Below, piece by piece: positions 12,084-64,000 of a stretch of 64,000 nucleotides of DNA. Position numbers and translations under genes: made by a program. The notes beneath the pieces were generated by a model that saw only the letters and a list, made by a program, of their open reading frames with translations, was not told where the DNA came from and made no database searches. The DNA comes from Promethearchaeota archaeon (GTDB lineage: Archaea; Asgardarchaeota; Lokiarchaeia; Sigyniarchaeales; SOKP01): positions 1-64,000 of the forward strand of contig JAFGOA010000036.1 in the NCBI GenBank assembly GCA_016926735.1, read 5' to 3'. How positions within the stretch are numbered: the stretch's first letter is position 1; each line of letters starts with the position of its first letter.

Positions 12084-13897
12084 TCCTAAAGAAAAAGAAA
12101 AGAAAAGAAAAGAAGAGTGATTTAAAAGCATTATATGTAATTAAACGTCTGATAAAATATATTGGATCTAATAATAAGAAATATATAGCTCCATTGATCA
12201 TTTTAATTATTCTTAATCTTTTTTTTAACTTATTTTCTCCATTGGTTTTTCGTCATTTAATTGATGTGGGAATAGGAAATGCGATAGGGGAAGGAACTGG
12301 AGGAAATATTGATATTATCATATTTGATGGGATTCTTTATTTTATATTGACACTCCTAATTGTTTTAACTCGAATTTTACAAGGATATATTATTCAGAAA
12401 CTTGCAACAATAACAATGTATAACCTCAGATATGAAATTTTCACAAAATTTCAATATTTAGGATTAGATTATCATGAAAATTCCAATAATAGTGCGGGAA
12501 AAAAAATTTCTTATCTAACGAATGATGTTAATACCATTCAAGAATTAATAGAAAGTGGGCTTTTAGTCATAATTGGAAATTTCTTTTCTTTAATAGGGGC
12601 TTTAGGATTTATGATTATATTAAGTCTACAATTAACATTAGTATTATTCATAATTATTCCTGTATTTGGAGTTATAGGAGGATCTGTTTTTAAAAAAGCT
12701 AGAAAATATTATAAAGATTTAAGAGAGAAAGTATCAAAGGTAACTAGTGCATTTGATGAATCTATTTTAGGAATGAGAGAAATCCAATCTTTTGCAATTG
12801 AAGAAGAAATGTTTTATGAATTTAATGAGGCTACCAAAAATGAAAAAGACATATCATTAAAATCAGCAAAATTATTTGCTATTATCCCAGGATTGATAAT
12901 TTTAGTATTTACCACTGGAATTGGTATCCTATTTTTTACAGCAGGGATTTTAATAAGAGATAAAGTAATTACATTAGGGACATTTATCTCTTTTATTTTT
13001 TATTTATTTCAATTCTTTGAACCCTTAAATGCTTTAATTGGGTTTTTTACAATATTACAAAATGCTTTAGCAGCAGGGACACGAATGATCGGTTTGATCG
13101 ATACTTATCCTTCAATAAAGGAAAGTTTTAATCCTATTAATCTGAAAAACATTCAAGGTGAAATTGAATATAATAATATTAGTTTTTACTATGATAAAGA
13201 AAATCCTGTCATTAATAATATAAATATCAGAATAAAAGCAAAGGAAAGATTAGCACTAGTTGGTTATACAGGTGCAGGAAAAAGCACTTTTATTAAACTA
13301 TTAAATAGATTTTATGATCCTATTGATGGGGACATTACATTGGATGGTGTAGAACTTAAAAATATCAATCTTAAAAGCTTAAGATCCAATATTGGAGTTG
13401 TTTTACAAGAAAATTTCCTTTTTTCAGGTACTATTATGGATAATATAAAATATGGAAAATTAGATGCAACAGATGAAGAAGTAATTAATATTGCCAAACA
13501 GGTTAATGCACACAATTTTGTTATTGATCTTGAAAATGGATATCAAACATTAGTAGGAGAAAGGGGAAGTCACCTTTCAGAGGGGGAAAGACAATTAATA
13601 GCTTTTGCAAGAGCACTAATAGGGGATCCTCCTATTTTAATATTAGATGAAGCGACTTCTGCAGTTGATCCTTATAGTGAGCTTTTAATCCAAGAAGCTT
13701 TAGAAAAGATTTTAAAAGGACGGACAAGTATTTCAATTGCTCATAGACTATCAACTATTATAAATTCTGATAGAATTTTGGTATTAGATAAAGGAAAAAT
13801 AATTGAAAAAGGTTCTCATGAAGAATTGATGAAAAAAAATGGATTTTATCAACACTTGTTTGAGCTACAATTTAAAGATCCTTATAAGAAATACTAA
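12080..13897 (+). CDS. ABC exporter subunit (TMD+NBD), second half of a heterodimer
   Basis: GYTGAGKS, degenerate signature LSEGERQ, canonical ILDEAT and IAHR; 4-nt overlap with the upstream gene. Confidence 0.93.
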   Translation: MILKKKKRKEKKSDLKALYVIKRLIKYIGSNNKKYIAPLIILIILNLFFNLFSPLVFRHLIDVGIGNAIGEGTGGNIDIIIFDGILYFILTLLIVLTRILQGYIIQKLATITMYNLRYEIFTKFQYLGLDYHENSNNSAGKKISYLTNDVNTIQELIESGLLVIIGNFFSLIGALGFMIILSLQLTLVLFIIIPVFGVIGGSVFKKARKYYKDLREKVSKVTSAFDESILGMREIQSFAIEEEMFYEFNEATKNEKDISLKSAKLFAIIPGLIILVFTTGIGILFFTAGILIRDKVITLGTFISFIFYLFQFFEPLNALIGFFTILQNALAAGTRMIGLIDTYPSIKESFNPINLKNIQGEIEYNNISFYYDKENPVINNINIRIKAKERLALVGYTGAGKSTFIKLLNRFYDPIDGDITLDGVELKNINLKSLRSNIGVVLQENFLFSGTIMDNIKYGKLDATDEEVINIAKQVNAHNFVIDLENGYQTLVGERGSHLSEGERQLIAFARALIGDPPILILDEATSAVDPYSELLIQEALEKILKGRTSISIAHRLSTIINSDRILVLDKGKIIEKGSHEELMKKNGFYQHLFELQFKDPYKKY

Positions 13898-14035: not shown

Positions 14036-14416
14036 TTAAGCTGGAAAGTTATAGGAACATTTTTTACAAGTAATCTTTTTCTTATATATCTTTATTCCTC
14101 CCATTTGATGAATTGGGGGTTGAGACCTATCTTCCCTCTCATCAAAATCAGTACCTCCGCATTCAGGACATACTCTTCTTCCTTCTACAGGAGGGGCTAC
14201 TTTAAGCCTTTCTTCTTCTTTCTGTTTATCTATGACTTCAGAAGGTTTTAATCCTCCTGGAGCTGTTTCTGCAGCAGGAGCTGGTGTTGACGCAACTGGA
14301 GTTGGTTCTGGCTCTTTTGGAGCAATAGAACCACTTGAACTGGAACCTAGTACTTTATCTAATTTATCATTTATGATTTCAAGTAATTTTATTACTTTTT
14401 CTTCAAATTCACTCAA
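14036..14416 (-). CDS. Small protein: short amphipathic helix, Pro/Ala linker, zinc ribbon
   Basis: TTG start preceded by AGAGGAG; CPEC...CKKC; the ribbon aligns with the gelsolin C-terminus. Confidence 0.8.
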   Translation of the reverse strand: MSEFEEKVIKLLEIINDKLDKVLGSSSSGSIAPKEPEPTPVASTPAPAAETAPGGLKPSEVIDKQKEEERLKVAPPVEGRRVCPECGGTDFDEREDRSQPPIHQMGGIKIYKKKITCKKCSYNFPA

Positions 14417-14859: not shown

Positions 14860-17187
14860 TCAATTTTTTTGTCTCATTGGAGTGAAAATATCAAAAAATT
14901 CCCTTTTTAACTTAGTATTCAATTGAAATTTTATTATTATTTTATTTCCTGAAAGAGTATTAGCATGAATATTATTAAAAGATTCTCCAAATCCTGTAAA
15001 AACAACAATATCTCCATTCTTTAAATTAGAATCTAATTTATCATTGTCTTTCACCCGGAGATACATTCCAGGTTTAATATCATATAAATTATTAATATTG
15101 TGAATACTTGAAAAGGAATAAGTTCCTGCATATTGCTCAATAACATAGTCATATAATTGTTTTAAAGGCTCATTTTCTATTTCTACAACTTCTCCTTTAA
15201 TTCCTCTTTTAGCAATTAAAAGAGCCGCAATAGCATGATCAACAAAGCCTTTACTTTTTACTTCACTAACTAATTTACCTTGCTGTAAATGAAAAATCGC
15301 TTCTTTAGTTGTCTTATACTCATCAACGAGAAATATTTCTGGTGGTTTAAAATGTTTTTTGCTTGAATTATTATATTTAGATATCTTTCTATCCATTTTA
15401 TCTTTAGAAAATAGATGTCCTTCTTTTGTTTGATTTGGAATATTAAAATAATCTATCAATAAATCGATAATGAAATTAGAACCAGGACCATTCCCGATAA
15501 AAATTCTATTTATTAATTCCTTTTCATTTCCAAGGAATAGATCTAATTCTTTTTTAATGATAGAAATAGCACCTAAACGAGCTTTTGCATTTTCTATTTT
15601 ACTTTTAAGATTTACATACCATAAAGAAGGGAGTTCTGATTTCTCTATTAAGCAAAATCCAAAATGTCTCGTCCCAGGATCAACTGAAAGAACTCTACCA
15701 GTTTGTTGAAAATTGAAAATACTTATTTCGGCTTTACCATTAGAAGTCTTCATAAGAGAGTTAAAAAAAAATTCAAACTGTTCATTTTTGATCTGTAGAA
15801 AGAAAATATTTGTATTTGATTGATACAATACCTCAACATCATATTTTTGAATAATAGGATAGATTTCATGAATATTTTCAATTTTTACAATCACATCTTG
15901 ATGTGGAATAATTTTAATTAACTTAACTTTCTCTATAGCCTTAGCTATAGCTTGAGCAATATTATCTTCATTATTTCCAGAGAGAACATCAACATGCAAA
16001 CCATCTAAATGAAATGCTTCATATGCGGCAGATGAACCTAAAATATCATAAATCTTCTTTTCATTAGTACCATTTCTGGTAATCGTTAAAATTCTTTTAA
16101 ATCTTGGAGCAATTTTCACTTGAGCACCATTGGATTTACCAGTACTCTTTTTATTTATTGTTATTATTCCTTTTATTTTAGTTCCAATAATCTTAAAATC
16201 AATTAATTTCTCTAAATTCTCTTTGATAAAGTCAAATTGAACATCACCTAAAACCTGTATGTTGATATCTTTTTTATCAATGTAAAAATTAAATGATGGA
16301 ATTATTGTTTTTAGATCTTCTAAAATTTCAATACCCATTTTGAATTTAAAAGGATCATTAATATGGATAAAATATTCCTTTCTTGGTTGGATTTCAGACA
16401 TTAAACCATTAATTTTACTAGAAATAAAGTTTCCTCTAATATATTTTGTCCCTAAATCAAATTTCTTGTTAAGATTTAAAGAAATTTGAATAATGTCCCC
16501 TTCAGTAGCATCTTCTAAAGATTGAGTATCTAAAGAATACATATGTTTAACTCTTAATTTTTCAGTGATGAAACTATTAGTTTTAATTGTTCCAGAAAGA
16601 ATTCCTATACTAATCAAATCTCCCAATCCCTTTTTATAATCATATCCTAATATAATAAATTTAAGATCTGATTTGTAATTTTCTCGCCTTTTAGAATATA
16701 ATTGTATTCTTTTAATTAGGTTTTCTATACCTATTTTTTTTTTTGATGAGGTTTCAACAATAAAATACTGGTCTGTTGTTAATTGTTCTAAGTTTTGTTT
16801 AATTTTTTCTATAGATACATTTGGTAAATCCATCTTTGTCCCCACAATTATCATAGGTAGTTGCATTTTAGTAGCTATATCGAATAACCAGTATGTGCGT
16901 GCTTTAAATCCTTCATTGGCTGCAGCTATCAATACTAAGACATCAGTAAATTCTAAACCTAGAGCAATACTACCTTGAAAGTCAATATGACCCGGAGAAT
17001 CTAAAAAATTTAACAATAAATTTTCCTTTTTAAGATAAAATTGAATGACTTTAAGGGATACAGTTGTACCATGATTTAATTCAAAATCTAATTTATCTGG
17101 AAATTTACCAACGATAGCATTTATCAAAGAACTCTTACCATGCTGACTGTGACCTGCAATTAGAACATTTAAAACTCTTCTATTCAT
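14860..17187 (-). CDS. Translational GTPase (EF-G/TetM-like) fused to a YqgF/RuvX-like RNase H-fold nuclease domain
   Basis: GHSQHGKSS, ELNHGTTV, DSPGHIDF, TKMD; later VLSVDPG, IFIGNGPGS, VDEYKTT, VDHAIAALLIA. Confidence 0.8.
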   Translation of the reverse strand: MNRRVLNVLIAGHSQHGKSSLINAIVGKFPDKLDFELNHGTTVSLKVIQFYLKKENLLLNFLDSPGHIDFQGSIALGLEFTDVLVLIAAANEGFKARTYWLFDIATKMQLPMIIVGTKMDLPNVSIEKIKQNLEQLTTDQYFIVETSSKKKIGIENLIKRIQLYSKRRENYKSDLKFIILGYDYKKGLGDLISIGILSGTIKTNSFITEKLRVKHMYSLDTQSLEDATEGDIIQISLNLNKKFDLGTKYIRGNFISSKINGLMSEIQPRKEYFIHINDPFKFKMGIEILEDLKTIIPSFNFYIDKKDINIQVLGDVQFDFIKENLEKLIDFKIIGTKIKGIITINKKSTGKSNGAQVKIAPRFKRILTITRNGTNEKKIYDILGSSAAYEAFHLDGLHVDVLSGNNEDNIAQAIAKAIEKVKLIKIIPHQDVIVKIENIHEIYPIIQKYDVEVLYQSNTNIFFLQIKNEQFEFFFNSLMKTSNGKAEISIFNFQQTGRVLSVDPGTRHFGFCLIEKSELPSLWYVNLKSKIENAKARLGAISIIKKELDLFLGNEKELINRIFIGNGPGSNFIIDLLIDYFNIPNQTKEGHLFSKDKMDRKISKYNNSSKKHFKPPEIFLVDEYKTTKEAIFHLQQGKLVSEVKSKGFVDHAIAALLIAKRGIKGEVVEIENEPLKQLYDYVIEQYAGTYSFSSIHNINNLYDIKPGMYLRVKDNDKLDSNLKNGDIVVFTGFGESFNNIHANTLSGNKIIIKFQLNTKLKREFFDIFTPMRQKN

Positions 17188-17400: not shown

Positions 17401-18240
17401 ATGGAAAATAGAAAAATTAATGATTCAGAATGGTTAATACCAAAATCAGATATCTCATTTGATTATCTTTTAAAATTTAATAGGAATATGGGAATATTAC
17501 ATCTTATTCAAGGACTAATTATGGTGATATTTGGTTTTCTCCCTCAATTAGCATTCAGAATAGATGTATATACAACATATATCAAATTTGTTTTAGGACC
17601 TCCAAATACTATAGAACCAAATCCAGAGATTCTTTTTTCAATTTCTGCTGTAGGTGCATTGGTTGGTTCTTTCTTATTAATATCCGCTTTAGCACATTTC
17701 TTAATAGCTTATCCATTAAATAAATCTTACATTAAAAATTTGAAGAGAGGGATAAACAAGGTTCGCTGGTTTGAATATGCATTTTCAAGTTCAATTATGA
17801 TTCTACTTATTGCTCTATTTTTTGGTGTTCTTGATTTCTGGGCACTGGTTATGATTTTTACTCTGAATGCTTTGATGAATATGTTTGGCTTAGTAATGGA
17901 ATCATATAATGTTTATACAAGAAAATTAGGTGAAAAGATTAAATGGGGGCCTTATTATTTGGGAGTTATTGCTGGAGCTGTTCCTTGGATTGTAATTACG
18001 GCCTTTTTCTTTAATACAAGTGTGACTGGGGGTCAAATTCCAGGATTTGTTTATGGAATCTATATAATCGAATTATTCTTTTACAATACTTTTGCAATCA
18101 ATATGATACTTCAATATAAAGGAGTGTGGAAATGGAAAGATTATCTTTTTGGAGAGAAAGTGTATCAACTTCTTAGCCTCATTTCAAAAAGTTTCTTAGC
18201 ATGGCTAGTTTTTGGAGGTGTTTTTTCTCCAACAGGGTAA
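17401..18240 (+). CDS. Heliorhodopsin
   Basis: 7 TM; FN..MGILHLIQG, SALAHF, N.VRWFEYAFSSSIM, LQY, Y..GE..Y..LSLISKSFLAW with the retinal-binding Lys. Confidence 0.95.
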   Translation: MENRKINDSEWLIPKSDISFDYLLKFNRNMGILHLIQGLIMVIFGFLPQLAFRIDVYTTYIKFVLGPPNTIEPNPEILFSISAVGALVGSFLLISALAHFLIAYPLNKSYIKNLKRGINKVRWFEYAFSSSIMILLIALFFGVLDFWALVMIFTLNALMNMFGLVMESYNVYTRKLGEKIKWGPYYLGVIAGAVPWIVITAFFFNTSVTGGQIPGFVYGIYIIELFFYNTFAINMILQYKGVWKWKDYLFGEKVYQLLSLISKSFLAWLVFGGVFSPTG

Positions 18241-55604: not shown

Positions 55605-58600
55605 ATGTGTGCTGAAAATTTTAGTAAACAACTGATCTCAAGATTTGCTGAACTGGAGTGTGAAAGACAATTATTTTTAGACATAGCTCGTAAATTTCCT
55701 GAGAAATGGTATATTGATCAAAGAAAAATTGAACCGGCCAAACATATTCGTAAAAAGGTTGAATTATTAAAAAGATTAGGAAAAGAATATGAGGATATTG
55801 TTTATTCTTATTTGTTAAAACTAGAAGGTGTACAATATAATGACAGTGGCCCAAGAATAGTTGAGGATACCTATCTTAATCCTTTTTTATTTAAACAATT
55901 ATATGAAGAGAAGAAAAAAGCTCATAATATAGATTTTATATTACTTGAATTTCAATATGAAATACCTGAATCATTTTTTCTCGATCTCTTTCCTTTAAAA
56001 AACAAAAATGATACAATACCTGTAAGTTATGCGGAACAAAGACCTGATATTATAGTTATAGGAAATTCTCTATGTAAAAATCAAGATTCTATTTTTGAAT
56101 TAAAACCTAAAGGAATAATTAGAGAAGTTCCTAAAGAAGAATTAAACTATCGATATGGAATAAATATTATTGATATTAAAAATGTAAGAGAAGACCACAT
56201 TGGAAAAAAACAATTTGTAGAGATTTTCTATTATCTTTATACCTTAAGTTATTATTTAGAGAATTATAATTTAGAGAAAAAATTCTTTATTAATATCGAA
56301 TTCAATGGAATTTTTCCCAAATATGATAATAAAATTTTAAAAGATATTCATTATCTAAATGATATTATAGATTTAACAATTTTAATTCATTGGAAAGAAT
56401 CACATCAACTTTTTGTGGATATTATCGAAAAGATTAAGAATTTATGGTTAAAATCTCCAGTTTTAATTGATTCTATACCTGTGAATATTCAAACAAATTG
56501 TGGTTATTGTTTTTTCTTAGAGGATTGTAAAAAAACACTCGGATTTGATGGTATAAAAGAACCTAAAGATTGGTCATTAAAATTGTTACCGCACACATCT
56601 AATTCTATTTCCCAAAAATTAATTGAAATGAACTTTAATACTATTGCTGATGTTGCGAATAATATATATAAAATACCCATCAGTAGTACTCCTGAACCTA
56701 TATATTCAGAAATACCTCTTCTAGAATTAAGAGCTAAATCTCTTTTATTGAATGAAGAAATTAATCCAAAATCAGGACTTATTTATACTTATTCACTCCC
56801 TAAATTTTCATCTTTCTCAGTTATTTTTGCAGTAGAAACTGATCCGGCTAATGAAAGAGTGTATGCAGCAGGTTTTCTTGTTGAAATGACAACTTCACCA
56901 AATGCCCCCTTTAGCACAGTATTTGATAATTGGTGGTCTATTTGGAAAAGATCAATGATTAACAATACATCCCTTTCAGAAATTCAAAATGATCTAAATA
57001 GATATCTTATAAGAGAAATATCAATAGAAGAGGTTAGTTGGTTTTTCAATCTTCTCAAAAAACTAAAAAATATGATTATACTTCTAAATGGTGAAGAAAC
57101 AAAAAAAGGAAAAAAAAGAAAATCTACGTATGTTTTATATCAAATTTCTGCTGTTAATGAAGATCATACAAATAAGTCTGAAGCAAAATTTACGAAAGAA
57201 GTAATAAAAAAACTTCATTATATCCTTGAGTTATGTAATACCGTGGAAAATTACGTAGTTGTTGAAGGTTTAAATTCAGGGGATTATTATGGACCATCAA
57301 CTAGCTTTTTTTATTGGTCTAAGAGACAATTAGATAATTTTCAAGATATGTTGGAAAGAAATTTAGAGGAGATAGTCAAAGATATTCCTATATTCCGAAA
57401 ATATCTCAAGATTTTATTTTTGTTTAATCCTTCTGACTCAGAGGTTACCAATCCATACCAACCAAAAAAATTATTTAATGTTCAAAAGTTTTGTGAAACA
57501 ATTTTAGGAGTCCCTCTTATTATTGGTTATACTTGGCATGAAATTGCATATAAACAATTGGGATTACGTTCTAATAAAGATTATTGGATTCCTCATTTTA
57601 ATTATATGGATTTCAATAATTGGTATGAAATGATATTAGAAGAAGATCCAAATAAGGTTGAAGAAATTAAAAATGAAATACGTAAACAAATTATGCATAA
57701 AATCAGAACAATTAATCGGCTTAGATTTAAATTTCAAACTGAAAGTAAACATGTAATTTCTAAACATGCCAATATTATTAGTAGAAATGTGATAAAAAGA
57801 ACAATTTTAACCTCTGATTTTCATCCTATCGCAAAAGTTTGGTATTTATTCTCAAGATTAACAGGTGCTATAGATCAAATTGAAAAAACAGAAATTCGTA
57901 CTACTTATCCTGAATTCAGTATAGGTAAAATGGATGCTGCTAAAGTTAGTAATCTAAAATTGCATAAAATAAGTAATAAAACATACAATACATTTGAATT
58001 AAAGGACTTATCCAGTAATATGAAAATTGATATTGGTGATAGATTACTATTGATTCCAGAGTTTAAAAGAGATATTAGCTCTAATAGACGATTATTTCCT
58101 TGGATAATTACTATAGATGAAATATTATGGTCCTCAAAAATTAATGGATATAGAGTAAAAACTAAACTTATTTTTAGTGAGAATAAAGGAGAAGATAAAA
58201 TAAATGAACTTAAATTTGCAAATATAGAGACTCTAGATTGGTATCTATATCCTTTATCATTAGATGCTTGGTCAAGTAAATTATATAGCAATAATGGTTT
58301 ATTAGAAAGAAATAATATTGGAAAATCATGGCTTGGCCATCTACTATCATATATATGGAATATTCAATCAAAAGACAAATTAAAATGGCCTGAGAACTGG
58401 GTTTTTTCTGGACCTTCTGTCTATCTATACACGCCACTCCAATTGAATAGAATTAAAGATAAAAATACAAAATTAGATAGTGTAGATTTATTATCTAAAA
58501 TTTATCCGAATCCAGATCCATCACAAAAAAAAGCTATTAATTTAGTATTAGAAAATATAATATCTGCCATTCAGGGACCACCTGGAACAGGAAAATCTCA

Positions 58601-60092
58601 GACAATTACAACTTTAATTGATGAATACTATGAAAGATGTTTATTAAATAAAAAACATTCAATACGGATATTGATAACTGCATTCTCTTATGCGGCTCTA
58701 AGAGTTATAATAGACAAAATTCGAAATGCTAAAGATACTTTTGGTAATCCCACAAGTATATCCAAGCTTCAAATGGTCTTTTTAAGATCAAAATACCAAA
58801 AACCTATTAAAAATAAAAATGATGAGAGAAAAGTTGATGATCTTGTACGTGTTGGAAATTCATGGAAATTTAATGAGGAATCACGTATAGTCACAAATAC
58901 AAATCCTCTTGAAAACTCCTTGGAAGATAATTTTATTATGTTTGCAAATGCTCATCAATTATATTATTTACCTGAACGAGTTAAAGATAATTTTTATTTT
59001 GATTTAATATGTGTTGATGAAGCAAGTCAACTCCCTGTTGATTATTTTATATCAAGTTTACAATTTTTAAAAAATAAGAAATTTTTTATGAAAGAACCAG
59101 AAAAGACATTAAAAACTAAAATTGAGTCAAAAAATAATGAAATTCTTGGAGAACTAGAATTAAATTATGATGAAGATATAATTCCTACAAAAGTAATTAT
59201 TGTAGGGGATTATAATCAATTACCTCCTGTTCAACCTGTGCCTCCTCCTAAAAACCTCAAAATAATATTAGAAAGTCTTTTTGCTTATTATGTTAAAAAT
59301 CACAAAATTCCTAATGTACAACTCCAAATAAATTACAGATCGAATAGAGATATTGTGGAATATACATCCCAACTTGGTGTCTATAAGAATTTGAATGTAG
59401 ATAAAAAAAATATTAACAAATTACTTTTAGGTGATTTAGAAAGAGTTAAAAAAGATTGGGTTAAAAAAATGTTAGATCCAAAAAAAGCAGTTATCACTAT
59501 AATACATAATAGAAATTATGAGATTGGAATAAGTACTTTAGAATCTAAAATTGTAGTAAATCTCCTTAAAGGTTATTTTTCGATGATTAATCCTAAAAAT
59601 GAAGAAGAGGAAAGAATATTTTGGAAAGAGTATGTAGGAGTTGTAGCACCTCATAATGCTCAAGGAAGATTAATTATTCGGCAGATACACGATGAATTAA
59701 CAAATAATATTGAGCCTATTTCAAATCTTGAACATTCAGAGTTAATGTTCCTATTAAAAAACTCTATTTATTCCGTAGAAAAATTTCAAGGTTCTGATAG
59801 AGAACTAATCATTTCATCAATTGGCCTTTCAGATCGAGATCAAATCTCTGCTGAAAGTGAATTTATTTATGATCTTAATAGATTCAATGTTCTTACTTCA
59901 AGAGCAAAGTCTAAAATTATTTTAATAGCTAGTAAAAGATTTCTTAAATTTATTCCCAATAATAGAGAAATTATGAAAGAAGCTGCTCAAATAAGAAGAT
60001 TTGCGTACGAATATTGTAATAATTTTATAAATATTCAATTAAAAAATGAAAAAAATAAGAATGAAAAAGTACAATTAAGATATAAACATTAA
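55605..60092 (+). CDS. Dna2-like PD-(D/E)XK Fe-S nuclease / SF1B (Upf1/Dna2) helicase fusion
   Basis: N-terminal C20, RPDII, IIDIK, CGYCFFLEDC; helicase motifs SQKKA, QGPPGTGKS, VDEASQ, VGDYNQLPP, NYRS, SVEKFQGSDRE, NRFNVLTSRAK. Confidence 0.85.
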   Translation: MCAENFSKQLISRFAELECERQLFLDIARKFPEKWYIDQRKIEPAKHIRKKVELLKRLGKEYEDIVYSYLLKLEGVQYNDSGPRIVEDTYLNPFLFKQLYEEKKKAHNIDFILLEFQYEIPESFFLDLFPLKNKNDTIPVSYAEQRPDIIVIGNSLCKNQDSIFELKPKGIIREVPKEELNYRYGINIIDIKNVREDHIGKKQFVEIFYYLYTLSYYLENYNLEKKFFINIEFNGIFPKYDNKILKDIHYLNDIIDLTILIHWKESHQLFVDIIEKIKNLWLKSPVLIDSIPVNIQTNCGYCFFLEDCKKTLGFDGIKEPKDWSLKLLPHTSNSISQKLIEMNFNTIADVANNIYKIPISSTPEPIYSEIPLLELRAKSLLLNEEINPKSGLIYTYSLPKFSSFSVIFAVETDPANERVYAAGFLVEMTTSPNAPFSTVFDNWWSIWKRSMINNTSLSEIQNDLNRYLIREISIEEVSWFFNLLKKLKNMIILLNGEETKKGKKRKSTYVLYQISAVNEDHTNKSEAKFTKEVIKKLHYILELCNTVENYVVVEGLNSGDYYGPSTSFFYWSKRQLDNFQDMLERNLEEIVKDIPIFRKYLKILFLFNPSDSEVTNPYQPKKLFNVQKFCETILGVPLIIGYTWHEIAYKQLGLRSNKDYWIPHFNYMDFNNWYEMILEEDPNKVEEIKNEIRKQIMHKIRTINRLRFKFQTESKHVISKHANIISRNVIKRTILTSDFHPIAKVWYLFSRLTGAIDQIEKTEIRTTYPEFSIGKMDAAKVSNLKLHKISNKTYNTFELKDLSSNMKIDIGDRLLLIPEFKRDISSNRRLFPWIITIDEILWSSKINGYRVKTKLIFSENKGEDKINELKFANIETLDWYLYPLSLDAWSSKLYSNNGLLERNNIGKSWLGHLLSYIWNIQSKDKLKWPENWVFSGPSVYLYTPLQLNRIKDKNTKLDSVDLLSKIYPNPDPSQKKAINLVLENIISAIQGPPGTGKSQTITTLIDEYYERCLLNKKHSIRILITAFSYAALRVIIDKIRNAKDTFGNPTSISKLQMVFLRSKYQKPIKNKNDERKVDDLVRVGNSWKFNEESRIVTNTNPLENSLEDNFIMFANAHQLYYLPERVKDNFYFDLICVDEASQLPVDYFISSLQFLKNKKFFMKEPEKTLKTKIESKNNEILGELELNYDEDIIPTKVIIVGDYNQLPPVQPVPPPKNLKIILESLFAYYVKNHKIPNVQLQINYRSNRDIVEYTSQLGVYKNLNVDKKNINKLLLGDLERVKKDWVKKMLDPKKAVITIIHNRNYEIGISTLESKIVVNLLKGYFSMINPKNEEEERIFWKEYVGVVAPHNAQGRLIIRQIHDELTNNIEPISNLEHSELMFLLKNSIYSVEKFQGSDRELIISSIGLSDRDQISAESEFIYDLNRFNVLTSRAKSKIILIASKRFLKFIPNNREIMKEAAQIRRFAYEYCNNFINIQLKNEKNKNEKVQLRYKH

Positions 60093-60110
60093 ATTTACTT
60101 TGAGAATTAT

Positions 60111-61604
60111 ATGACGAATATAAAATTCCTACATATTGCTGATATTCATCTTGGTAAAAGGCAGTATAATCTTAAAGAAAGATATTATGATTATTTCCGT
60201 GTTTTTAAATCAATTTTAGAAAAATCCATTGAAAAAGAAGTGGATTTTATTTTAATTTCAGGAGATCTGTTTGATAACAGAAAAATAGGTCCTATTGTTT
60301 TAACTGATGTTTTTAATATCATATCTAAATTTAAAGAGAGAGCTAAAAATAAATTAAATCGAGATATTCCTCTAATCTGTATTGAGGGGAATCATGATAA
60401 TCCTATTTATTCAACTCAATCTTGGATGACATTCCTCGCAGATCTAGAACTAATTATCCTTCTATCTGGAAAATATGATAAAAATACAAAAAAAATAATT
60501 TTTGACCCATATGACTCTAAAACTCGACGAGGAGGAAAAATAAAAATAAAAAACATAACAATATATGGTCTCCCATTTTTTGGCAGTTCTACCGCTCATA
60601 TTTTTCCTCAAATCTATGATGCAATAGAACAAAATAATGAGCAATCTAATATTTTAATGATGCATTTTGGAATTCAAGGAAATGATCCTATAAAATCAGG
60701 AATAGAAATATCTGAAAGCTTAAATAAATTAAGAGAAAAAATAGATTATCTTGCTTTAGGTCACTTTCATAAACAATATATACTTCCTAAGAAAGATCCT
60801 TGGATCTTTAATCCGGGAAGTCTAGAAATTAATGATATTAAAGAATTATTTGAAAATTATGAAAGGGGAGCCTTTATAGTAAAAATTTTAGGAAAAGAGA
60901 TTTATCATGAAGAACTAATTTGTGAAATAGGAGATAATAATAGTAATATGATTTCTAATAGAAATTTTAAACTTCTTTCTCCAATAGATATTGGTGAAAC
61001 AAAATCATTTAAAGAAACAATTGTTTTAATATTAGATTCCTTGATAAAAGATCTCCCTGAAAAAAAATCCAATTTATCAAAATCAAAAGATGATCTCAAC
61101 TGTCCAATCGTTATTTTTTCTATAAAGGGACAAATTCCATATTCAAGATTGGAAGTAAATATAAATCAATTAAAAGGGGAAATTATGAATAAATTTTCAA
61201 TTCTTGATGTAAGAATTTTTTCAACATATCTCATATCAACATTAGATGATATTATTATATCTGAAGAAAAAAAAACTATAGAAGAGATTGAAACGGATGT
61301 ATTTAATGCAATTTTAAGTGAAAATCCTCTCTTTAAAGGTATTGAAAGTGACACAATAGCATTAATGAAAAATATAAAATTTGGTCTAATTGAAAAATCT
61401 CCAAATTATTTTGAAATAAAAGAGTCTATAAAAGATTGGTTTATGTCGTATGTTGATAAATTCGACTTACCAAAAATTAATATTTTTACAAAGAGTAAAA
61501 AAATCAAGGAAGAATCATCAGAAGAGAATAATGAGGAGGAGATAGAAGAGAATATTCAAGATGAATTCGATTTGGATGAATATATAGATGATATTGACAA
61601 TTAA
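60111..61604 (+). CDS. mre11: Mre11/SbcD DNA repair nuclease
   Basis: HIADIHLG, SGDLFD, EGNHD, ALGHFH, NPGSLE; acidic C-terminal tail. Confidence 0.92.
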   Translation: MTNIKFLHIADIHLGKRQYNLKERYYDYFRVFKSILEKSIEKEVDFILISGDLFDNRKIGPIVLTDVFNIISKFKERAKNKLNRDIPLICIEGNHDNPIYSTQSWMTFLADLELIILLSGKYDKNTKKIIFDPYDSKTRRGGKIKIKNITIYGLPFFGSSTAHIFPQIYDAIEQNNEQSNILMMHFGIQGNDPIKSGIEISESLNKLREKIDYLALGHFHKQYILPKKDPWIFNPGSLEINDIKELFENYERGAFIVKILGKEIYHEELICEIGDNNSNMISNRNFKLLSPIDIGETKSFKETIVLILDSLIKDLPEKKSNLSKSKDDLNCPIVIFSIKGQIPYSRLEVNINQLKGEIMNKFSILDVRIFSTYLISTLDDIIISEEKKTIEEIETDVFNAILSENPLFKGIESDTIALMKNIKFGLIEKSPNYFEIKESIKDWFMSYVDKFDLPKINIFTKSKKIKEESSEENNEEEIEENIQDEFDLDEYIDDIDN

Positions 61605-61620
61605 AGAGGAAAAACATAAA

Positions 61621-64000
61621 ATGCTTATAACTAAAATTGAATTAAAGAATATTACAACTCATAAAAAAACGTTAATTGAATTTCAGAATGGATTGAATTT
61701 ATTATTTGGAAATAATGGTACTGGTAAATCAACTGTTCTTAATATGATTGGATATGTACTATTTAATTATCTTCCAGGGAAGCAAGAGAGCTACGTTCGT
61801 CAAGCTAAACGTGGAGAAATAAAACATGGGATGATAAAAGTCTGGGTTGTTGGTTTAGATGATGAATTATATATAATAGAAAGAACATTAGGAAAATCTA
61901 ATCCTAAAATTCAGATTAAATATGGATATACAGATTTAATTGTTCCCGGAGTAAATAATAAAATGGATTTAGAAGAATGGGTAAAAATTCAATTAAAATT
62001 AAATCCAGAAACTAATTTATCCGATCTTTTTAAAACATCTATTGGTGTACCTCAAGGAACATTTACACAACCTTTTTTAGAAACCCCTCAAAACAGAAAG
62101 AATTTTTTTGATCCTATTCTAAAGGTTGATGTATATAGGAAAATTTGGAAGAATTTTTTAAATATTATTAAAGAATTAGATAATGATATAGTTGAAATAA
62201 AACTTAAAAAAGAAAAATTAGAAGGACGATTAGAACCTATAGATGAGATAAAGAATGATAATGACCAATATATCTTAAAATTAAAAAAATCAGAAAGACA
62301 ATTAACCAATATTAAAAAGGAATTAGAATTATTAGAAAGAAAAAACAAGGAATACAAAAAAATAGATGATGAATTAAAAGAAAAAAATATTCTGAAAGAT
62401 CAGATATTAAATCAAAAAAATGAATTATATGAAAATCTAAAATCAATAAAAAATAAATTAGAAACAGCTCGAAAAGCTGGTGCTATTTGTGATAAAACCT
62501 TAAATGATTATGAAAAATATGAAGATTATCTAAAAGAGGAACAAAAATTAAAAAAATTAAATGAAGAACTAATTGATTTGAATAAAAATTATAATAAATT
62601 AAACCAAAAATTAATTCAATTGAAGAGTAATAGAGAAGAAAATCTTAATGAAATATCTGAAATAAACAAACAAAAAAAATCCTTTTTAGAGTTAGAAAAA
62701 AATTATGAATTATCACAACACCTAAAAGGAGAATATGAGACTTTAATGGGAAAAAAAAAAGAAATTATTATCTATGAAAAAGACCTTGAAGATTTTAAAA
62801 TAAAAAATGTTGAAATTACTAAAAAAATAGATGAAATTGAAAAGAAATATGATAATTACTCTGAATTAAAAAAAAAAAAAGAGATATTAGACAATAAGAA
62901 AGAATTAAAACATACATTAGAAATCAATATAAGTAAACTCGAAACTAGAATAAAACAGCTTGAAGAGAATAAGATTCAATCCAAGGGAGGTATTTGTCCA
63001 ATATTAAACGAACAATGCCGTAATATAGGAAGTAAATCTTTTAATGAAATATTTCAAAAAGAATTAGATGTATTAAATAAAGAATTAAAACCCGAATTAA
63101 AAAAAAGAAATGAAATTGATAAGGAATTAAAAGAATATGATATAATAAATAAAGAAATTAATAAATTGGATGAGCTAAAAGTACAATTAGATCTTCATAA
63201 GGAAACAAAACTTGAGATTGGAAAAAACATAAGACATCTTATTGATAAAACAAAAGAAAAGCAAGAAATAATAAGTAAATTAGATGATTATAAAAAAAAA
63301 AAAGATGAATTGGAATCAGATATCGAAAAATTTAATGTATATAAAGAAAAACTCTATGTTGATTTACCAAAAAGGAAAAAAAAAATAGAGGATTTGAACA
63401 ATAAAATCATCCCATTACAAGAAGAACTAAAACCTCTCAGAGAAAGAATTGAACATCTTGAAGAAAATCCTGAGAAATTAAAACTTATTAATATAAAATT
63501 AAATTCATTGAAAGAAAATCATGATCTATATTTATCTAATAAGGATATTGCCAGAACTGTACAAGAACTAGAAAAAGAACAAAATATTATAGAGGAGAAA
63601 TACAATAAATTGGAAAAAAAAAATCAAGGAATAATGAGTGAAATAGAAAAAATAAGTAAGACATATGATAGAAACGATAAAGAAAATGTAGAAAAAAGAT
63701 TTTTGAGTCTTAAAGAAGAGCAAGGAAAGATCTTAGAATCAATTAATGATTCAAAAGATAGATTAAAGGAGATTAACAAAAAATTAGAACAACTTAAGAA
63801 GATTGAAGATAATTTAAAAATTACTATGGATAAATTAAAGACATTAGATTTTATTAAAGATATTTCTGAAAAAATTCGCTCATATTATAAAATAGCAGGT
63901 CCAAAAATTGCAGAAACGTTATTAAAACATATTAATGCCGAAGCTACTAACCATTATAGGTCTATTATGGAAGATCATAATGTAATTTTAACATGGGAAG
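61621..64000 (+). CDS. rad50: Rad50/SbcC SMC-family ATPase (runs off the window end; absent from the ORF track)
   Basis: Hand translation from ATG 61621: MLITKIELKNITTH..GLNLLFGNNGTGKST, Q-loop IGVPQGTF, coiled coil, CPILNEQC hook at 62995-63018; still in frame at the window end (AGPKIAETLL..LTWE). Confidence 0.92.
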   Translation, partial: MLITKIELKNITTHKKTLIEFQNGLNLLFGNNGTGKSTVLNMIGYVLFNYLPGKQESYVRQAKRGEIKHGMIKVWVVGLDDELYIIERTLGKSNPKIQIKYGYTDLIVPGVNNKMDLEEWVKIQLKLNPETNLSDLFKTSIGVPQGTFTQPFLETPQNRKNFFDPILKVDVYRKIWKNFLNIIKELDNDIVEIKLKKEKLEGRLEPIDEIKNDNDQYILKLKKSERQLTNIKKELELLERKNKEYKKIDDELKEKNILKDQILNQKNELYENLKSIKNKLETARKAGAICDKTLNDYEKYEDYLKEEQKLKKLNEELIDLNKNYNKLNQKLIQLKSNREENLNEISEINKQKKSFLELEKNYELSQHLKGEYETLMGKKKEIIIYEKDLEDFKIKNVEITKKIDEIEKKYDNYSELKKKKEILDNKKELKHTLEINISKLETRIKQLEENKIQSKGGICPILNEQCRNIGSKSFNEIFQKELDVLNKELKPELKKRNEIDKELKEYDIINKEINKLDELKVQLDLHKETKLEIGKNIRHLIDKTKEKQEIISKLDDYKKKKDELESDIEKFNVYKEKLYVDLPKRKKKIEDLNNKIIPLQEELKPLRERIEHLEENPEKLKLINIKLNSLKENHDLYLSNKDIARTVQELEKEQNIIEEKYNKLEKKNQGIMSEIEKISKTYDRNDKENVEKRFLSLKEEQGKILESINDSKDRLKEINKKLEQLKKIEDNLKITMDKLKTLDFIKDISEKIRSYYKIAGPKIAETLLKHINAEATNHYRSIMEDHNVILTWE

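Follow-up and report, generated by a model that had tools for sequence, protein, structure and literature searches.

A translational GTPase fused to a YqgF-type nuclease domain in Asgard archaea and Methanopyri

Little is known about RNA cleavage on stalled or defective ribosomes in archaea, or about the enzymes that trim archaeal rRNA ends. An open reading frame of 775 codons in the window (the whole 64,000-nucleotide stretch of DNA analysed here) raises a question in this area, namely whether a translational GTPase (trGTPase) joined in one chain to a YqgF-type nuclease domain is a genuine archaeal protein, where it belongs among the trGTPases, and what it might do.

The reading frame proposed by the first-pass annotation was recovered at positions 14860–17187 on the minus strand (Table 1), and all the motifs quoted for it were found in the protein. 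Full-length homologues were detected, as would be anticipated for a real fusion, in related genomes: about 85 from Lokiarchaeia at 54–96% identity, together with distant ones at 27–33% identity in other Asgard classes and in Methanopyri, retrieved by an exhaustive profile search. Beyond these distant full-length members the matches fall to the G domain alone, and this succession indicates that the fusion is real and that the family is closed. The GTPase and nuclease halves co-occur in every complete homologue examined. Compared with two relatives, the gene showed dN/dS values of 0.11 and 0.14, remaining below 0.25 in each domain and reaching its lowest values (0.03–0.15) in domains III–V. Homologues and dN/dS together rule out an assembly artefact or a pseudogene, and the fusion is thereby confirmed as a real family. 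A promoter scan at the gene returned chance-level signals only, this type of scan being ill-suited to archaea.

Table 1. Coordinates in the window of the fusion gene, its domains and the gene marking its slot
Feature	Residues	Position	Strand	Basis or remark
trGTPase-YqgF fusion gene	775 aa	14860..17187	-	ORF; full-length homologues; dN/dS 0.11-0.14
G domain, without G' insert	1-165	16693..17187	-	Pfam GTP_EFTU, column counts, spacing
Domain II beta-barrel	~166-262	16402..16692	-	all-beta in model; EF-G_D2; VIA alignment to EF-G
EF-G/EF-2 domain III	~263-336	16180..16401	-	profile matches and superposition
Putative reduced domain IV	~337-428	15904..16179	-	colinear hhalign; strand/helix order in model
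Domain V	~429-495	15703..15903	-	weak EFG_C and SBDS_C matches; colinear hhalign
YqgF/RuvX/Tex-type RNase H fold	~496-665	15193..15702	-	Pfam, model, column counts
Linker helix and five-stranded beta-barrel	~666-775	14863..15192	-	model
Small Zn-ribbon-type gene		14036..14416	-	downstream; marks conserved slot

The GTPase half shows the features that define the trGTPase superfamily, i.e. G1–G5, a switch II His and a domain II barrel following the G domain, with a Pfam GTP_EFTU match at aa 4–163 (6e-25). Residues K18, T42, D63, G66, H67, K118, D120 and S147 are invariant in the G domain of the family, the GTPase His67 being conserved across 106–107 homologues. The description of G1 as an EF-type P-loop held for the motif and failed for one key residue, since Q15 occupies the position of EF-Tu Asp21. 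This Asp is replaced by Gln in 80 of 104 members, the 775-aa protein included, and is retained in 21, which belong to Methanopyri and to non-Lokiarchaeial Asgard archaea. In EF-Tu, Asp21Ala slows ribosome-stimulated hydrolysis about 1000-fold, and in trGTPases the switch II His touches A2662 of the sarcin-ricin loop (PMC5084732).

Downstream of the G domain, domains III and V had been recognized correctly in the first pass, whereas domain II and a shortened domain IV had gone unnoticed. The EF-G_D2 model exceeds its cut-off in Methanopyri members (1.4e-12), and domain III is matched by profiles of aEF-2 (2e-5), Tet-like proteins (5e-4) and TetM/TetO (0.013). In the full-length AlphaFold model (pLDDT 80, pTM 0.69, with low confidence in the linker), domains I–III superpose in VIA on EF-G 4v9o (Z 32.8, rmsd 2.8, 332 residues aligned), and 437 residues align with archaeal EF-2 6u43 at an rmsd of 5.4. 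The fold of aa 1–496 matches EF-G, EF-2 and Snu114, the last being level with EF-G in VIA. Using hhalign, the profile of aa 262–496 proved colinear with domains III-IV-V of EF-G-like proteins (221 columns, E 4e-4) and of aEF-2 (220 columns, E 9e-4); against LepA only domain III aligned. The segment between domains III and V spans about 92 aa, is shorter near the tip loops, lacks the His of the H583/diphthamide loop and gave no significant match when compared alone by profile, its putative assignment to domain IV relying on colinearity and secondary structure. The protein therefore resembles EF-G, aEF-2, Tet(M) and Tet(O) in its domain order I–V, fold, switch II His, G4 and G5, while differing by the smaller size of its GTPase half (~495 aa versus ~640–730), the missing G' insert, the short domain IV tip without the His loop, a P-loop opening with Gly-His, a P-loop to switch I spacing of 24 (versus 33–39 in the EF2 family), its separate clade and the added nuclease and barrel.

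On 267 columns of the G domain and domain II, with a sampling that left out RF3, the family formed a single clade (support 100/99), sister to LepA, BipA, EF-G, Tet and aEF-2 jointly (96/85) and outside the sampled EF2 family (100/98). The specific label "EF-G/TetM-like" given initially is consequently abandoned, the spacing of 24 being that of SelB and aIF2-gamma, even though domains III and V are present after domain II as the EF2 family requires. A clade with aEF-2 was not rejected on the same columns (p 0.105), so that the family may possibly have arisen from aEF-2 by fast evolution. SelB and aIF2-gamma share with the fusion both this spacing and a G domain devoid of G', whereas they carry an EF1-type domain III in place of the EF2-type domains III–V, and a clade uniting the family with SelB, aSelB and aIF2-gamma was rejected (AU p 0.0057), which also dismisses a SelB/EF-G chimera despite the agreement in spacing. 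All NCBIfam trGTPase models scored far under their cut-offs against the 775-aa protein. An EF-G/aEF-2 translocase was discarded on this ground and on the absence of G', the spacing and the short domain IV without its His; Tet(M)/Tet(O) on its tet_protect score (66 bits for a cut-off of 775) and its separation in the tree; and IF2/aIF5B on a position outside the IF2 clade, a spacing other than 21 and the lack of IF2 domains III–IV. Since the host genome has kept EF-1A, aEF-2, aEF-2p, aSelB, aIF5B and aIF2-gamma, the fusion protein represents an additional factor. The same genome holds a truncated copy of the aEF-2p N-terminus of 162 aa (L036 = G000:C55:8581-9000).

The C-terminal half was predicted in the first pass to contain an RNase H-fold YqgF-type domain, and both models and profiles agreed with this prediction. 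Of 76 family members, 74 are recognized by the Pfam model RuvX (best 2.5e-8), which reaches its gathering cut-off in three of them (P0111, P0112 and P0113) and matches the 775-aa protein itself weakly at aa 595–658. The AlphaFold model of aa 494–775 aligned with Tex (Z 12.3–13.1, rmsd 3.7–3.8, ~130 residues), Spt6 (Z ~12) and, in VIA, Deinococcus radiodurans YqgF (7w89; Z 11.5, rmsd 2.7, 109 residues), with RuvC-type resolvases also among the fold matches. Three carboxylates, D503 at the end of beta1, E623 at the end of beta5 and D650 in the last helix, are invariant across 106–107 homologues, as are E629 and H651, in a family whose members diverge to about 30% identity; beta4 ends in GNGPG and has no Glu. 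This is the pattern of YqgF, with an Asp in beta1, a Glu at the end of beta5, a single Asp in the last helix and no beta4 Glu, and the D. radiodurans protein is an RNase that requires the equivalent residues for its activity (PMC9601230). The acidic residues thus stand where the first pass had placed them, and the fusion architecture with an intact nuclease site is borne out by homologues, model and invariant residues. Among Lokiarchaeia, Asgardarchaeia and Methanopyrus the nuclease domain is conserved at 37–44% identity versus 33–41% for the G domain, and a disordered insert at aa ~586–611 is specific to the Lokiarchaeial members. Judging from its sequence, the nuclease domain is apparently catalytically intact.

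The known YqgF/RuvX proteins (PF03652; Escherichia coli YqgF, D. radiodurans DR2509, Mycobacterium tuberculosis RuvX) share with the fusion the RNase H fold, the Asp-Glu-Asp triad and the lack of the RuvC beta4 Glu, whereas they stand alone, with a length of about 140 aa, and are essential in several bacteria, none being known as a fusion with a GTPase. Tex and Spt6 gave the top Z scores and have the DPG and GNG motifs and a small barrel behind the domain. In Tex, however, the third carboxylate is missing (PMC3985635) and HhH and S1 domains are present, and neither protein has a GTPase. Membership of the Tex/Spt6 group was rejected, D650 being present and the nuclease domain being followed by no more than a single helix and a short barrel. 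This C-terminal region had been described as a beta-rich tail of ~110 aa; a beta-barrel of ~75 aa was indeed modelled, preceded by a helix. Its modelled strand order suggests an SH3/KOW-like barrel, an S1/OB-type barrel (IF1 at E 0.47, and two Spt6 rows) being the alternative reading, and searches of Pfam, PDB sequences and the ESM Atlas gave no significant match. The tail carries a charge of +9 to +14 in distant members and −1 in the 775-aa protein. Lokiarchaeia also encode a standalone YqgF-like protein of ~296 aa with DPG and IDE motifs and no Pfam match (L082:3751-4575, L083–L088; in the host G000:C17 ~12130-13020, plus strand), next to genes read from their sequence as RlmE/FtsJ-, Trm1-, RadB- and TlyA-like. 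As searches of four Asgard genomes returned no Hjc, this protein might act as a resolvase or as an rRNA nuclease.

The fusion is carried by all six Methanopyri genomes. In Methanopyrus kandleri AV19 the orthologue (Q8TV36/AAM02777.1) is labelled "Translation initiation factor 2, GTPase" and has IF-2 as its best NCBIfam match, M. kandleri-type genomes carrying a separate aIF5B. A 2015 survey of trGTPases gives an odd "IF2" for the M. kandleri genome (PMC4342817 supplement), which is probably Q8TV36. Among 379 Asgard genomes, the carriers were Asgardarchaeum (G004), a probable member of the Baldrarchaeia (G007) and 34 of the 129 genomes of the Lokiarchaeal family from which the window comes, searches of the other 248 genomes finding no copy. 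Full fusion matches were confined to these groups in a pattern scan covering 185,579 genomes.

Within the Lokiarchaeal family the gene occupies a constant slot, flanked in most cases by a dual-specificity phosphatase gene and a Zn-ribbon gene. Neither is a dedicated partner, both occurring also without the fusion and the phosphatase not being found in the genus of the window. In at least 26 non-carrier relatives no more than 91–237 bp separate the two flanking genes, which excludes incomplete assembly as the cause of absence, and no fusion remnant was seen at the empty sites in the loci read. Set against genus labels, the gene tree required 11 changes, for a minimum of 10 and 24 after shuffling. 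The fixed slot, the clean empty sites and a tree following the genera point to vertical inheritance with repeated loss in this family. The fusion is dispensable in Lokiarchaeia, and this speaks against an essential role in rRNA maturation in that class.

Gene neighbourhoods in Lokiarchaeia or Methanopyri offered no ribosome or RNA clue. A link to selenocysteine was rejected on the few genomes compared, a carrier (G304) having no SelB among its trGTPases and a non-carrier (G307) having two; these two aSelB copies lie on one Lokiarchaeal chromosome (L123 and L126). Diphthamide loss was likewise rejected, Dph2 being present in M. kandleri and missing from the Asgard carriers tested, as was the idea that the fusion stands in for Pelota, SBDS or Hjc, whose occurrence does not track with it over five genomes. 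Small-RNA libraries of M. kandleri gave, in one study, contigs of low depth in the 5' and 3' portions of the gene, on both strands, a signal too weak to be used. In the window, a heliorhodopsin gene (Pfam 6e-86; 17401–18240, plus strand) diverges from the fusion; the two adjoin in six loci only, so that the heliorhodopsin was probably inserted into the slot. In non-Lokiarchaeial Asgard archaea, the fusion is directly followed by a gene for a conserved protein of ~98 aa with no Pfam match, in many cases accompanied by an ARMT1-like gene (L027:4099-4398, L028:9870-10166, L030:8937-9236, L045:7725-8006).

Considering sequence and modelled structure together, we propose, with a probability of roughly 55%, that the protein is a GTP-gated, ribosome-docking RNase cutting on the A-site/large-subunit side, with a part in either quality control or late-stage maturation. 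The first pass had likewise read it as a GTP-gated nuclease docking at the ribosome. Once GTP is bound, docking at the factor-binding site would rely on domains I, II, III and V as in EF-G, EF4 and BipA, with contacts to the sarcin-ricin loop, the uL11 stalk base and the small-subunit shoulder, and the blunted domain IV would fill or sense the A-site side while being unable to drive translocation. The nuclease, joined to domain V with almost no linker, would then most likely cut RNA on the A-site side, be it rRNA, tRNA or mRNA, in ribosomes that are stalled, idle or immature, and the C-terminal barrel may assist in gripping the RNA. Its placement on this side is suggested by EF4 and BipA, whose C-terminal domains sit there after domain V and reach tRNA and 23S rRNA (PMC5207388). 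Release would follow His67-dependent GTP hydrolysis, for which the Lokiarchaeal Asp-to-Gln change in the P-loop predicts a slower rate and a longer dwell time. The protein would serve ribosome quality control or a checkpoint late in maturation, and other pathways able to take over would account for its repeated loss.

By analogy, the fusion may work like an accessory factor of the EF4/BipA type bearing a YqgF domain. EF4 (LepA) and BipA/TypA are alike in lacking G', in being accessory and dispensable and in having an extra domain behind domain V, whereas they have no domain IV, their C-terminal domains are non-enzymatic and they are bacterial or organellar. MutS2/RqcU also joins an NTPase to a nuclease domain and binds ribosomes, its ATPase and Smr domains being unrelated to those of the fusion. 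Several points count against a ribosomal role: the P-loop position at which fast ribosome-stimulated hydrolysis requires an Asp is mostly occupied by Gln, the gene neighbourhood is silent on ribosomes and RNA, and, as analogies, Snu114 has the same fold and works off the ribosome and aIF2-gamma shares the switch I spacing without being ribosome-activated. Against an RNA target, again by analogy, some YqgF proteins cut DNA junctions.

Other explanations were weighed against the proposed A-site-side RNase. The protein could be the counterpart of E. coli YqgF, trimming the pre-16S 5' end in near-mature ribosomes with its GTPase serving as a test-drive checkpoint, a role compatible with the YqgF-type triad, with the action of E. 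coli YqgF on pre-16S within 70S ribosomes and with a presence in six of six Methanopyri. We consider this unlikely, the fusion being cleanly absent from at least 26 close relatives and not found in 248 other Asgard genomes, all of which must nevertheless mature their 16S rRNA, the host having a separate standalone YqgF-like gene, and a domain placed after domain V presumably sitting on the large-subunit side. The patchy distribution (34 of 129 in the Lokiarchaeal family) would fit a translation shut-off nuclease triggered by stress or infection, for defence or dormancy, which would mimic EF-G to reach and inactivate ribosomes; an effector nuclease is joined to an NTPase, and the Gln P-loop could lock the protein onto the ribosome. 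The slot fixed amid housekeeping genes, the agreement of the gene tree with genus labels and the retention in all Methanopyri make this scenario quite improbable, as do the lack of a PADLOC match to the fusion, with LeoA similarity of the GTPase domain in two homologues only, and of any antitoxin-like partner travelling along.

The remaining alternatives concern the nuclease domain itself. It is equally improbable that the RNase H domain is a non-catalytic nucleic-acid binder, as in Tex/Spt6, within a GTPase remodelling ribosomes or RNPs. Snu114 and Prp8 offer a functional analogue of such an arrangement, an EF-2-like GTPase lying beside an RNase H-like domain, albeit on separate chains, and Snu114 equals EF-G among the structural matches; Tex/Spt6 are the best matches of the nuclease domain (Z 12–13), the DPG and GNG motifs are Tex-like and two Spt6 rows align into the tail too. 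The three carboxylates with E629 and H651 are nevertheless invariant, where Tex lacks the third, and Tex/Spt6 exceed YqgF by a Z of just 1–1.5. A RuvX-like resolvase of DNA junctions, under a GTPase that left the ribosome, would fit the resolution of Holliday junctions by some YqgF/RuvX proteins, the RuvC and resolvase fold matches and the failure to find Hjc in the four Asgard genomes tested. We regard it as very unlikely, for M. kandleri has Hjc in addition to the fusion, a non-carrier (G065) is also without Hjc, and the ribosome-facing domains III–V are under the strongest purifying selection (dN/dS 0.03–0.15).

Literature searches by architecture and accessions returned no description of the fusion, in line with the first-pass statement that no such protein was known, a passing mention in the M. 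kandleri genome paper being possible. Both halves come from known superfamilies; the papers searched describe neither their combination nor the subfamily. The trGTPases are among the best-surveyed families, with 57 subfamilies counted (PMC4342817), and yet a member with a fused nuclease was not found described. Tentatively, the family might represent a deep-branching new trGTPase subfamily, sister to all EF-G/EF-2/LepA/BipA proteins and no recent offshoot of them. It might then be the first case of a catalytic nuclease built into a ribosome factor, and define an archaeal GTP-gated pathway of ribosome quality control or RNA cleavage. M. kandleri is cultured, and a one-chain, probably thermostable protein makes a direct test possible. 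That it occurs both in Methanopyri and in part of the Asgard archaea is also relevant to the early evolution of trGTPases.

Two further observations were made along the way. At its far end (55605–64000, plus strand) the window contains an ORF of 1495 aa followed by ORFs that look, from their sequences, Mre11-like and Rad50-like. Methanopyri also encode a second odd trGTPase, a three-domain SelB/EF-Tu-like protein of ~360 aa with the P-loop GHFNHGKT (L101:943-2073, L110:961-2046, L128 and L133), which is probably the extra "SelB" entry for M. kandleri in the same survey (PMC4342817).
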